Shown here: positions 10,321 to 13,733 of the stretch, piece by piece
Layout of the letters: every line of letters starts with the position of its first letter
Position numbering within the stretch: position 1 is the stretch's first letter
Notes under the pieces: generated by a model
What the model was told of the DNA's origin: nothing
What the model saw: only the letters and a program-made list of their open reading frames with translations
The model's database searches: none
Position numbers and translations under genes: made by a program
Source: an uncultured archaeon
GTDB lineage: Archaea > Asgardarchaeota > Lokiarchaeia > Sigyniarchaeales > SOKP01
Reading direction: 5' to 3'
Assembly (NCBI GenBank): GCA_964388035.1
Contig: CAYLZE010000027.1
Location: 14,414 to 49,844, forward strand
Length of the DNA stretch: 35,431 nucleotides

Positions 10321-11400
10321 TTAATGAAAGATAAAAACAATCAAAAATAGTATTGTTGCAGATATAACAGGAAAAAGTAGATTGTCATCAATAGGTAAAT
10401 CTAAATAATCTATGAATCCGATTATTAAAGCACCGAATAAAGGAAATAGAATAATCTCTAGGGTTATTAATGTATAGAAAGGTTGGAGATTTATAAGAAG
10501 AATCACTCCTGAAATAAATCCAATAATAATCTCCGAAATTAACCCTTGATATGTTTTGCTAGTGTTTCTGATGTAATTTTTACCAAATCTTCTACCAATT
10601 AAATTAGCACTCATGTCTCCAAAAATAGAAATGGTCATGGATAAGCAAATAACCATTGGACCAATAGGTTGAATCAAGCCAAAAAGTAAGATTATCGAAA
10701 AACAACCAATAGCCATGGAAATCTGAGGCCCTACTCGCGAATGTAATTCGTTTTCTCTTAAAATCTTATTTACGGGTTTTAATGGATAAAGATTTGGTCT
10801 TAAGATTCTTGAAAAATCGGCAGTTAACAAACCAATTGTTGAAATCCCTACCAAAAACACCACCAGGAATTGAGTAAAGATCATTACATCTTTCTCCATG
10901 CTAAAAAGTGAATGAAATAAATCGTATACACTAACTGGAAAATAACTCAAAATTGTATAGAAAAAATTTTGAATGAGGAAGCCTAGTGTAAAATAGAAAA
11001 AAATAATACCTAATACCACCAAGTGAGTTAATTTCCTAATAATTTCATATCTATAGGATAATTCTTTTCCAACTTCTTCTTTTTCATCCATTTGGTTTTT
11101 ATACTTTTTAATTTTCCTTTTTTCATTTAACATGCTCAAATAAAAACACGGTAAAAAAATAATAATAAAAAAGGTCATTAAGATATCAAAAGGAAAAACG
11201 ATTAGGTCTCTATGTAAAGGATTTAAAAATCTCGTGTTTAATAGATTGATTGAGAGCGAAATCGCTAAAACAATGGAATTTGATACATTATTTATAAACG
11301 CTCCTTTATTTCCACGTTTCTTTGCTAAATATGAAATGTAAAACAGTATTATATCGTAAAAATATAAAAAACAAACAATAAAAAACGATAAGATGTTCAA
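10321..11400 (-). CDS. CTP-dependent diacylglycerol/polyprenol (dolichol/phytol) kinase family membrane protein
   Basis: EIIRKLTHL, GDMSANLIGRRFGK..KTYQG and IDDNL motifs; start codon uncertain. Confidence 0.85.
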   Translation of the reverse strand: MNILSFFIVCFLYFYDIILFYISYLAKKRGNKGAFINNVSNSIVLAISLSINLLNTRFLNPLHRDLIVFPFDILMTFFIIIFLPCFYLSMLNEKRKIKKYKNQMDEKEEVGKELSYRYEIIRKLTHLVVLGIIFFYFTLGFLIQNFFYTILSYFPVSVYDLFHSLFSMEKDVMIFTQFLVVFLVGISTIGLLTADFSRILRPNLYPLKPVNKILRENELHSRVGPQISMAIGCFSIILLFGLIQPIGPMVICLSMTISIFGDMSANLIGRRFGKNYIRNTSKTYQGLISEIIIGFISGVILLINLQPFYTLITLEIILFPLFGALIIGFIDYLDLPIDDNLLFPVISATILFLIVFIFH

Positions 11401-11602: not shown

Positions 11603-13018
11603 TTAGAATTTAGATTCGTCAATAACAGGCATGGAAGGGGAACTTAATGCTCGTTCGATCTCCTCATCGGGCAATTCATAATCTTTCAGTTCTCCCGTCA
11701 TTCTTTCCTTATAAGCCAAGAGATCAAAGTATCCATGACCGCTAAAGTTGAAAACTATGACTTTTTTCTCGGAATTTTCTTTGGCTTTTAAGGCTTGATC
11801 TATTGCTTCCTTGATTGCATGAGCCGCTTCTGGGGCGGGAAGTATCCCTTCTGTTTTTGCAAAAGTAAGACCTGCGTCAATTACTTCTGTCTGATGATGC
11901 ATTGTAGCTTTAAGGATCTTATTATTATAAAGATTTGAAATGATTGGGGCGATTCCATGATAACGTAATCCTCCTGCATGAATTGGGCTTGGTATAAAAT
12001 CATGACCAAGCGTATGCATTTTTAAAATCGGAGCTTTTTTCGCGGTGTCACCAAAATCCCATCGATATTGTCCTTTACAAACGCTAGGACAAGCTCTTGG
12101 TTCTACGCCTATGATTTCCACATCCGGGAGCTTTCCCTGAATTTTATCGCGGGCAAAAGGGATCATGAACCCACCAAAATTTGATCCACCGCCCATACAT
12201 CCAATTAATATATCAGGTTCTGTAATTCCCGCTTTTTGTAATTGAATTTTGGTCTCTTGCCCTATAATAGATTGATGTAGTAGGACAAAATTCACTACAC
12301 TTCCAAGAGAATATCTTATTTTATCACTCCTTAAACTATGCTCCACGGCCTCAGAAATGGCAATTCCTAAACTCCCAGGATGCTCGGGGTCTTTCTCATA
12401 AAATGTTCTTCCTGAGTCAGTGAATCTTGATGGACTGGCATGAACTTCAGCATTATACGCTCTCATCAGTATTTTTCGACCCGGTTTTTGTTCAAAACTT
12501 GCTCGAACCATATAAACAGTACATTTCATGCCAAATAGATTACATCCAAAAGACAATCCCGACCCCCATTGTCCTGCGCCTGTTTCAGTTACGAGTTCTT
12601 CAATGCCTTGTTTTTTTGCATAATAAGCTTGAGCAAGCGCCGTGTTCGGTTTATGAGAGCCTGTTGGAGAAACTGATTCATTTTTATAAAATATTTTGAT
12701 ATCATCTCCTTCAATGCCCAACGCTTTTTCAAGACCTAATGCTCTGTGTAGTGGAGTGGGACGGTAGCTTCTGGCATAAATCTCCCTTAATTCCTTGGGA
12801 ATGGGAATGAACGGGTCACTTGAAACATCTTGCTTCACGCATTCTTCCGGAAAAATGGCGCATGCCATCTCAAAAGGTGCGGGTCTCCCATCCATGGGAT
12901 TAATTAAGGGCGTCATTGGTGTGGGTAAATCAGGTAAGATGTTTACCCATTCTTTGGGAACTTCATTTGGTTCCAATAAAATCCTTGCATTAAAATTGTT
13001 TTCCATTTTTTTTACCAT
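11603..13018 (-). CDS. trpB2: TrpB-like PLP-dependent enzyme (TrpB2, stand-alone tryptophan synthase beta/indole salvage type)
   Basis: RPTPLHRA, SPTGSHKPN (PLP lysine), TETGAGQWG, GSLGIAISEA, GGGSNFGG, IHAGGLRYHG and FNFSGHG motifs; no adjacent trpA. Confidence 0.96.
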   Translation of the reverse strand: MVKKMENNFNARILLEPNEVPKEWVNILPDLPTPMTPLINPMDGRPAPFEMACAIFPEECVKQDVSSDPFIPIPKELREIYARSYRPTPLHRALGLEKALGIEGDDIKIFYKNESVSPTGSHKPNTALAQAYYAKKQGIEELVTETGAGQWGSGLSFGCNLFGMKCTVYMVRASFEQKPGRKILMRAYNAEVHASPSRFTDSGRTFYEKDPEHPGSLGIAISEAVEHSLRSDKIRYSLGSVVNFVLLHQSIIGQETKIQLQKAGITEPDILIGCMGGGSNFGGFMIPFARDKIQGKLPDVEIIGVEPRACPSVCKGQYRWDFGDTAKKAPILKMHTLGHDFIPSPIHAGGLRYHGIAPIISNLYNNKILKATMHHQTEVIDAGLTFAKTEGILPAPEAAHAIKEAIDQALKAKENSEKKVIVFNFSGHGYFDLLAYKERMTGELKDYELPDEEIERALSSPSMPVIDESKF

Positions 13019-13130
13019 TTATAATTTAACTCAAAATTTATACGTGTTTCATGCAAAATATTGGAATTCAATATTAATATGCACGAAATTAAGAGAAATA
13101 GTCTAAGCTTCCAAAATTTAAAATATTTAT

Positions 13131-13140
13131 AAAACAAAAA
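13131..13140 (-). terminator. Oligo-T tract (TTTTTGTTTT) in the trpB2 leader; candidate premature terminator
   Basis: Lies about 40 nt after the leader stop, at the base of the predicted leader hairpin. Archaeal termination uses U-tracts. Confidence 0.45.
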
Positions 13141-13178
13141 GCTAAGATGATTTGGTTAATCCAGTGAGTGCGCGTTCT

Positions 13179-13229
13179 CTAACGCCACAGCCAATGCCAA
13201 GCCCAAGAATGTAATTTTAAGGTTGACAC
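13179..13229 (-). CDS. Trp-rich leader peptide MSTLKLHSWAWHWLWR upstream of trpB2
   Basis: Minus strand reads GTG TCA ACC TTA AAA TTA CAT TCT TGG GCT TGG CAT TGG CTG TGG CGT TAG; alternative in-frame TTG start at 13238. Four TGG codons in seven positions, same strand as trpB2. Confidence 0.8.
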   Translation of the reverse strand: MSTLKLHSWAWHWLWR

Positions 13230-13278
13230 TTTTATCAAACCAAATATGATAGTTAATGTTATGTAAAAAACTAAATAG

Positions 13279-13286
13279 TATAAAAA
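13279..13286 (-). promoter_or_regulatory. Candidate TATA box (TTTTTATA) for the leader-trpB2 transcript
   Basis: Implies a start site near 13254, 16-25 nt before the leader start codons. The AT-rich context weakens this call. Confidence 0.35.
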
Positions 13287-13325
13287 GTTATTGGATAAAA
13301 AGCCATATTATCGTATAAAACTTGC

Positions 13326-13733
13326 TCAGACCGTTCCTTCAAAAATTTTTCTTAAATTATTGGCTGCAACTCTCATTACTTTAACAGTTTTCATCATTGT
13401 ATCAATAGCAGTTCCCGCACACATGAGTACGAGTTTTCCTGCATTACTAATCACGATATATCCATTTTCTGCTCTCACAATTATTTCATTAATATCTTCT
13501 TGGAATAATGTTTGGATAGTAGATCTTGCAGTCAATAATACTGCCGATATTTGACCACAGAATTGGTCTGAGTCCACGTTATATTGAGGTAGACTAGAAA
13601 ATGCAATTTGATACCCTTCGAAACTAACTAATGCAATTGCCTCAATTTCAGCATTCGCTGTAATGAAGGTAATCTGGGGGCTAATTTTCTGAATATCTTC
13701 TTCAGTAATCCCTAAATCTGTTCCGAATTCCAT
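13326..13733 (-). CDS. Roadblock/LC7 (MglB-like) domain protein
   Basis: EIEAIALVSFEGYQIA, EIIVRAENGYIVISNAG and alpha-beta-beta-alpha-beta-beta-beta-alpha layout. Confidence 0.9.
   Translation of the reverse strand: MEFGTDLGITEEDIQKISPQITFITANAEIEAIALVSFEGYQIAFSSLPQYNVDSDQFCGQISAVLLTARSTIQTLFQEDINEIIVRAENGYIVISNAGKLVLMCAGTAIDTMMKTVKVMRVAANNLRKIFEGTV

Follow-up and report, generated by a model that had tools for sequence, protein, structure and literature searches.

The trpB2 gene analysed here is preceded by a mini-ORF of 16 codons, four of them for tryptophan, which, judging from comparison among relatives, very probably lets a ribosome gauge the tryptophan supply. The ORF lies in a window of 35,431 nt, by which we mean the whole stretch of DNA that was analysed; positions are counted from its first letter. 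In our preferred reading, which we regard as probable, the translated leader senses charged tRNA-Trp and controls trpB2 in cis by means of a stem-loop and an adjoining U-tract. At the level of sequence, the comparison establishes the ORF, its coding constraints, a long helix (P1), a smaller stem (hairpin A), the U-tract and the tie to tryptophan genes; we infer translation, ribosome stalling and, as the output, termination. A Trp-sensing leader regulating trpB2 was the core of the original prediction, and it gains support from the conservation of the ORF before both trpB2 and the trp operon, from the coding constraints and from the RNA structure. Leader-peptide attenuation is a textbook bacterial mechanism, which needs ribosomes close behind RNA polymerase. 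By the features described below, the element is an archaeal variant of leader-peptide attenuation with an architecture of its own. A full-text literature search found no published report of an archaeal leader-peptide attenuator, in agreement with the original prediction, which knew of no description in Asgard archaea.

A tryptophan-codon-rich ORF upstream of trpB2

The leader ORF occupies 13179..13229 on the minus strand and comprises 16 codons and a TAG stop codon, encoding MSTLKLHSWAWHWLWR; orthologous ORFs are present in relatives. Translation from GTG 13229 to TAG 13179 yields (M/V)STLKLHSWAWHWLWR. The extent of the ORF, its location on the same strand as trpB2 and its distance of 160 nt from the annotated trpB2 start codon, ATG 13018, were reproduced exactly as predicted. 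Four of the 16 codons are TGG (13205, 13199, 13193 and 13187), an enrichment characteristic of leader-peptide attenuators, and translation confirmed that they are in the W-x-W-x-W-x-W register that had been described. This run, TGG-GCT-TGG-CAT-TGG-CTG-TGG (13185..13205, minus strand), would provide the sensing codons. The GC-rich patch noted earlier in AT-rich intergenic DNA was likewise evident, with a GC content of 0.48 at 13140-13219 versus about 0.2 in the flanking intergenic DNA. Of the two start codons that had been offered, GTG 13229 was retained and TTG 13238, which is also in frame, was not; we prefer the GTG because the start codon of most relatives' leaders lies 8 codons before the first W. 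The GTG occupies this conserved position and pairs with a compensating CAC (see below).

The regulated gene (11603..13018, minus strand) encodes a PALP protein that, by its profile scores, is TrpB2, a TrpB-like PLP enzyme, and not TrpB1. Its product scores above the curated cut-offs of NF009057 (647.9 versus 366 bits) and TIGR01415 (601 versus 518.85 bits) and below that of the TrpB1 model TIGR00263 (149.8 versus 392 bits). The true start codon is likely ATG 13006, 172 nt from the end of the leader ORF: the N-terminus that it specifies (MENNFN...) lines up with the MVDYFN N-termini of relatives, and a GGT is located 9 nt upstream. ATG 13018, within 13004-13018 (minus strand), probably belongs to this Shine-Dalgarno-like GGT.

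We counted the pattern TGG(N3TGG)x3 on both strands of the 5.47-Mb bin and found four occurrences versus 0.28 expected. Of these, two fall within long coding ORFs and two are upstream of the only two Trp-biosynthetic transcription units of the bin, trpB2 and trpDCFBAEG.

Conservation of the leader among Promethearchaeota

MAGs related to the bin bear the label Promethearchaeota (Asgard archaea of the Lokiarchaeota type), in line with the Asgard-like archaeon of the original prediction. For public MAGs we required at least three W in the last 10 codons of a short ORF (sORF). A W-rich sORF was present upstream of trpB2 in 31 of 39 Promethearchaeota MAGs, ending 128-175 nt before the gene. None of 41 non-Asgard trpB2 loci, taken from bacteria and other archaea, had a W-rich sORF at a comparable position, and the single three-W frame in this set, 298 nt upstream of trpB2 in a bacterial MAG, was unrelated. 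Screening of 40 relatives showed that most genomes of the same family carry an sORF of the form M(A/S)T...W-x-W-x-W-x-W-(R)-stop, 124-171 nt upstream of trpB2. Shorter forms, for instance WAW and WPW, occur before trpB2 in other families of the order, and another Asgard family (f9) has a distinct, conserved sORF with one or two W and the conserved tail YQWHWGPRGPV, located 120-165 nt upstream (L174-L188). Trp-rich ORFs before trpB2 orthologues, whose absence was one of the refuting outcomes named in the original prediction, are thus present across the family and the order and, in weaker form, in another family. The GC-rich tail of the f9 sORF may be a structured RNA or else a signal carried by the nascent peptide.

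Within one genus, the trpB2 leaders are, as read from the loci, a natural loss series. The trpB2 leader ORF of G024 (L009), in which no trp operon was found, has six W. The ORF is deleted before trpB2 in G006 (L005) and G017 (L006), both of which have the operon with a leader of its own. Despite the loss of the ORF, L006 retains the 3′ arm of hairpin A, CATTGG and the T-run.

A covariance model of the leader, R1, found only the trpB2 leader in this bin and missed the diverged trpD leader described below; in a 151-genome sample of the phylum, its matches were restricted to family f1. The model is therefore a sequence-family detector and is no test of absence elsewhere.

Coding signature of the leader ORFs

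We compared the W frame with the other two frames in 44 leaders. An in-frame ATG 4-16 codons upstream, with no stop codon between, was present in 37 of 44 leaders in the W frame, versus 1 and 2 of 44 in the other frames. All 44 leaders had a stop codon at most three codons past the last W in the W frame, versus one and none in the other frames; the frame had been picked partly by a nearby stop, which introduces some bias into this stop-proximity comparison and none into that of the ATG. The stop codon is TAA in 21 leaders, TAG in 16 and TGA in 7, and in 29 of the 44 the distance from the start to the first W is exactly 8 codons. Length differences within the ORF are steps of 3 or 6 nt, and the number of W units differs between leaders in 6-nt steps. 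The TGG positions are fixed and the codons between them vary, specifying A, H and L here and mostly R, Q or P in relatives; some of the changes among relatives are synonymous. The leader ORF accordingly keeps its start, frame, regulatory codons and nearby stop, with the rest drifting. Retention of TGG codons with drift elsewhere had been proposed as a check on the prediction, and it was found, together with some synonymous variants between the TGGs.

A long helix encloses the leader ORF

Upstream of the ORF, we identified a predicted archaeal BRE/TATA promoter element, AACTTTTTATAC (13278..13289, minus strand; TATA at 13286-13279). It is the best-conserved upstream block in alignment A1, with T/A columns that are invariant or nearly so, and is positioned at a fixed distance of about 50 nt from the leader start. 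The usual archaeal spacing from TATA to the transcription start is about 25 nt. Given this spacing and the position of the TATA, transcription is predicted to start near 13256, coinciding with the 5′ end of P1.

The 5′ strand of P1 (13226..13253, minus strand) takes in the 5′ UTR and the GTG start codon. Its 3′ strand (13141..13167, minus strand) places CAC 13166-13164 opposite the GTG and AACCAAAU opposite AUUUGGUU. P1 thereby encloses the entire ORF, with the 5′ UTR, the start and the first codons pairing with a segment 12-38 nt past the stop, and the conserved RNA structure takes in the region upstream of 13179. MAFFT/RNAalifold analysis of 16 leaders recovered only a downstream hairpin, element C (see below), and a mini-hairpin, as P1 was out of register between the aligned sequences. 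Therefore, we used an RNAduplex permutation test for P1. Cognate 5′ and 3′ windows gave -11.4 kcal/mol versus -9.0 kcal/mol for non-cognate ones, with 0 of 20000 permutations reaching this difference, and a second set of 30 distinct leaders gave -12.55 versus -8.99 (p=0.0002). Other cognate window pairs of the 30 leaders gave no pairing signal; composition is therefore controlled for in the test.

The P1 partners differ in sequence between genera, being AUUUGGUU/AACCAAAU here and GAUUUGGUUUA/UAAACCAAAUC, AAAUAGUCC/GGACUAUUU, GAUUUAG/CUAAAUC and AUCCUAU/AUAGGAU elsewhere. In relatives, the start ATG is paired with the CAT in a conserved TTGCATTGG (as RNA, the CAU of UUGCAUUGG). The GTG/CAC pair here is a compensatory double change with respect to ATG/CAT in G001, a genome of the same genus.

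Hairpin A (13168..13188, minus strand), delineated from folds and from the stem variants of relatives, has the sequence GUGGCGUU AGAG AACGCGCAC. The last Trp and Arg codons form its 5′ arm and the nucleotides directly after the stop codon its 3′ arm, the stop itself being in or at the loop. At least seven variants of the stem keep the pairing, including GGCGU/ACGCC, UGGC/GCCA, GGUCUU/AAGACC and GUGC/GCAC as well as GCGCG/CGCGC, GUGUUUU/AAAACAC and GGCUU/AAGCC. Thus, both hairpin A and P1 overlap the ORF, and both show covariation. The single-sequence fold of the leader is not exceptional (z = -1.35), and whole-leader MFE folds of 250-350 nt with ribosome masks were swamped by AT-rich long-range noise.

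Element C, a second conserved hairpin (13043..13085, minus strand; GTGCAT..ATTGAATTCCAAT..ATGAAACAC), sits between the U-tract and the trpB2 ribosome-binding site. It was recognized from invariant columns in A1 and by RNAalifold, which showed compensatory changes (A-U to G-C) and G-U pairs. Element C is kept in the two trpB2 leaders that lack the W-ORF (L005 and L006) and is present in trpD leaders of two genera (L034, L038, L040 and L041); it is missing from several trpD leaders that retain the ORF, P1 and the U-tract. We considered its core motif as a shared operator and rejected this candidate: the motif has eight genomic copies, and the others are without the flanks and are located in coding or unrelated DNA. 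A further small hairpin, CACAT..ATGTG, comes after element C in many relatives.

The U-tract and a proposed ribosome-gated step

Immediately after P1 is a U-rich tract, TTTTTGTTTT (13131..13140, minus strand), a candidate archaeal termination signal. In a set of 30 leaders, the fraction of T climbs from about 0.4 in the flanks to 0.52-0.61 between +30 and +60 nt past the stop, and the most T-rich 10-mer falls at +21 to +49 in 27 of the 30. The core termination signal of archaea is a U tract, which is read by aCPSF1/FttA and needs no hairpin, and a hairpin can enhance it; the aCPSF1 of Lokiarchaeota is functional in Methanococcus (reviewed in PMC13675443). No canonical terminator with a GC-rich stem was found in the leader, in a scan for sigma-70 promoters and hairpin terminators that is uninformative for an archaeon.

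In a search for an antiterminator, cognate and non-cognate duplexes were compared between the 5′ strand, the W-run or the 3′ strand and two downstream windows. None was found (p 0.25-0.99), the sole exception being a weak signal between the P1 3′ strand and the trpB2 start region (p=0.07). Mutually exclusive terminator and antiterminator structures were likewise not found in this comparison; a small hairpin, B, that competes with the P1 3′ strand was seen by eye only.

We modelled the ribosome as a 30-nt mask on the leader. The mean fold energy rose from -26.0 kcal/mol to -13.1 kcal/mol with the mask at the first W, -9.1 kcal/mol at the last W and -10.8 kcal/mol at the stop. Any ribosome in the 3′ half of the ORF would therefore open most of the leader structure; none of the masks prevents the outer P1 pairs beside the U-tract from forming. 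Whether the ribosome stands on a Trp codon or on the stop makes no difference that the thermodynamic model can resolve, and discrimination would therefore have to be kinetic. Since the masks do not separate the states and there is no covarying antiterminator, we favour a two-state kinetic design.

A second Trp leader and a proposed tryptophan regulon

The bin contains a second Trp leader, MIANFFKVLKTHLIWIWAWRWHA followed by a stop codon (L032:7349-7420 on contig C100, minus strand), 217 nt upstream of a complete trpD-C-F-B-A-E-G operon (L032:391-7131, minus strand). This leader has its own P1-type helix and U-rich tract. Contig C100 may have been mis-binned from a related organism that was present in this sample, because it is an outlier in GC content (0.362 versus 0.333) and tetranucleotide composition and the contamination of the bin is 7%. 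Among relatives, 15 regions upstream of trpD were readable, and 14 of them carry a W-rich sORF.

TrpD and TrpA were found in 10 of 25 family genomes and neither was found in the other 15, many of which are 96-100% complete. The leader is present before trpB2 in 13 of these 15 genomes, one of the 13 leaders being degenerate. Four of the 10 operon-bearing genomes have a trpB2 leader as well, and six have a leader before trpD only, weakened to two W in two of the six. Nearly every genome with a Trp-forming gene therefore has at least one such leader. The prediction had implied that the stand-alone TrpB2 works in Trp supply; its apparent co-regulation with the trp operon, and the presence of the leader mostly where TrpD and TrpA were not found, speak for this role. 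TrpB2 would thus belong to a Trp-supply regulon, plausibly by indole salvage. For many relatives no Trp-forming enzyme besides TrpB2 was found, a pattern that points to salvage of indole from partners.

A candidate leucine leader

A blind scan of intergenic sORFs for runs of other amino acids was noisy. We rejected His-run sORFs as leaders: the one on contig C36 has no downstream gene on its strand, and the one on contig C63 is followed only by short unidentified frames more than 1 kb away. No His-run sORF was found before hisG. The PDT (pheA-like) gene has no separate leader region, because another ORF directly precedes it.

Before leuA lies an sORF of 32 codons, MPQKLTNSERTIFLGGFSSLKLLRNSLLLLLL followed by a stop codon (L141:138-236 on contig C10, plus strand), that ends in six Leu codons 91 nt before the gene (L141:328-1941); GC-rich hairpins come next. 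In relatives, 20 of 25 loci have a Leu-run sORF that ends 82-99 nt before leuA (L143-L163). We propose it as a candidate leader peptide of the same class as the Trp leader.

Proposed mechanism

In the mechanism that we propose, the conserved TATA box would direct transcription to begin some 25 nt ahead of the GTG, and the leader RNA could form one long stem-loop, with P1 at the base, hairpin A on top and the U-rich tract next. Stem-loop and U-tract would together act as a stop signal only if the pioneer ribosome had already gone from the ORF. When Trp is plentiful, this ribosome would pass the four UGG codons, terminate and depart; the whole stem-loop would close as polymerase arrives at the U-tract, and transcription would end, or the RNA be cut, there. 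When Trp-tRNA is scarce, the ribosome would be held on the UGG run, the stem-loop would not be fully closed and polymerase would continue into trpB2. Closed P1 would hide the leader start codon, limiting sensing to the co-transcriptional round.

We incline, by a modest degree, to the broader view that these amino-acid-specific leaders, for Trp here and for Leu before leuA, form a family that carries out ribosome-mediated attenuation in Asgard archaea by a non-bacterial design, in which the whole mini-ORF, with its start codon, is placed in one long hairpin before an archaeal U-tract terminator and closure of this hairpin depends on how long the ribosome stays. If true, this would be direct genomic evidence of functional transcription–translation coupling in the closest prokaryotic relatives of eukaryotes. 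The Trp and Leu leaders would show that translation gates gene expression co-transcriptionally in Promethearchaeota, and that archaeal U-tract termination is open to regulation by RNA folding and ribosome position. The leader element is short, portable and precisely mapped, and hence amenable to testing.

Comparison with known systems

The element shares with trpL, the ribosome-mediated transcription attenuator of the enterobacterial trp operon (RF00513), a short ORF before Trp-biosynthetic genes, Trp codons near the 3′ end of this ORF, a stop soon after, an RNA structure overlapping the ORF end and a U-rich tract ahead of the structural gene; read-through would be expected in both when tRNA-Trp is uncharged. 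It differs from trpL in its archaeal host and in having no match to the sequence or structure of RF00513. Whereas trpL has two adjacent Trp codons, the Asgard leaders have 3-6 alternating ones. Unlike in trpL, the whole ORF, including its start codon, is inside one long helix, no 2:3 antiterminator was found here, and the polymerase and the termination machinery are archaeal (U tract, aCPSF1/FttA).

In the pyrBI leader of E. coli, the ribosome physically blocks the terminator hairpin, and UTP is sensed via pausing of the polymerase. Our proposal resembles pyrBI in that a single terminator-type structure would be gated by a ribosome on the leader ORF, with no antiterminator needed. However, the pyrBI ORF runs through the terminator, whereas the Asgard leader ORF sits inside the stem-loop, and pyrBI senses UTP and not, as proposed here, an amino acid via codon choice. 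Among archaea, TrpY is a DNA-binding repressor at the promoter of the Methanothermobacter trp genes. Trp-responsive control of archaeal trp genes is common to TrpY and our proposal, but the Asgard feature is a transcribed, structured and apparently translated leader.

Alternative explanations

The alternative that survives best keeps the sensor and changes the output: a stalled ribosome would affect the translation or stability of the trpB2 mRNA, and not termination. Such a ribosome might remodel element C and the hairpin adjacent to the ribosome-binding site, or shield the 5′ end from decay, and P1 is indeed at the extreme predicted 5′ end. The erm leaders are one precedent for an output of this kind. 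Another bacterial precedent is the translational attenuators formed by the leaderless polycysteine sORFs of mycobacteria, on which a stalled ribosome remodels the mRNA and unmasks a downstream ribosome-binding site (bioRxiv 10.1101/834739); like the leaders described here, they repeat the codons of a single amino acid within a short upstream ORF, and this amino acid co-ordinates several loci. The failure to find an antiterminator fits this alternative, as does the weak covariation of the P1 3′ strand with the trpB2 start region, and the true output might reside in the two other conserved hairpins located downstream of the U-tract and ahead of trpB2. However, unlike in the mycobacterial cases, the trpB2 start is about 170 nt from the leader stop, and no significant covarying pairing connects the two. 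Moreover, the trpD leaders that do without element C have the ORF, P1 and the U-tract, and the positionally fixed U-tract would be left without a role. We therefore consider a translation or stability output unlikely, and continue to favour control at the U-tract.

We give much less weight to the idea that the UGG repeats act as RNA, either as a TRAP-like protein site or as a T-box-like tRNA-sensing element, with the ORF being incidental. Triplet repeats at regular spacing are also a feature of the trp leader RNA in TRAP-mediated attenuation in B. subtilis, and the repeats here are regular (period 6, mostly UGGC), the intervening CAG, CCT and CGT codons are conserved in many relatives, and the whole region is structured RNA. 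However, TRAP sites are 9-11 GAG/UAG repeats bound by protein, whereas the Asgard leaders have only 3-6 repeats, the four UGGs here being in-frame codons of a conserved ORF. A search of the bin for TRAP (PF02081) detected none, while the B. subtilis positive control was detected, and Rfam searches gave no match to Trp_leader (RF00513) or to the T-box riboswitch, either at the gathering score or, for 12950-13350, at E<=10. Start, frame and stop are kept in the W frame only, with all three stop codons in use, and the intervening codons have changed here (to A, H and L) with the TGG codons retained. These observations make an element of this kind very improbable.

Slightly less probable still is the idea that the ORF makes a Trp-rich micropeptide with a function of its own, or a peptide that, like TnaC, arrests the ribosome when free Trp is abundant, with no sensing of tRNA-Trp. 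Conservation of the WQWPWRW part of the peptide in many relatives, and of the tail QWHWGPRGPV in the other Asgard family, would suit such a peptide. Against it, the N-terminal half and the intervening residues are free to vary, the number of W units changes in 6-nt steps, and the ORF is tied to two different Trp-biosynthetic units; induction by high Trp would also be the wrong logic for a biosynthetic trpDCFBAEG operon. Finally, the ORF could have arisen by chance in the AT-rich intergenic DNA. Four or more TGG codons occur in 94 of the 125730 short ORFs of the bin, so such ORFs are no great rarity, and a very large scan will meet some beside trp genes by luck, but the conservation over dozens of genomes, the absence from the non-Asgard controls and the structural covariation leave this a negligible probability, and we regard the leader ORF as not due to chance.

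Gene neighbourhood of trpB2

The upstream neighbour of trpB2 is a gene for a Roadblock/LC7 protein. Between trpB2 and pyrI is a 359-aa ORF (10321-11400, minus strand) without a Pfam or NCBIfam match. The same ORF order, with similar sizes, occurs in at least one other genome, G150, as judged from lengths and not sequences. A single contig of G150 carries two copies of the trpB2 locus together with its leader (L169 and L170). The second covariance-model match in this genome, considered as a new target gene, was rejected as such: by ORF sizes and synteny only, it corresponds to the second copy of trpB2.
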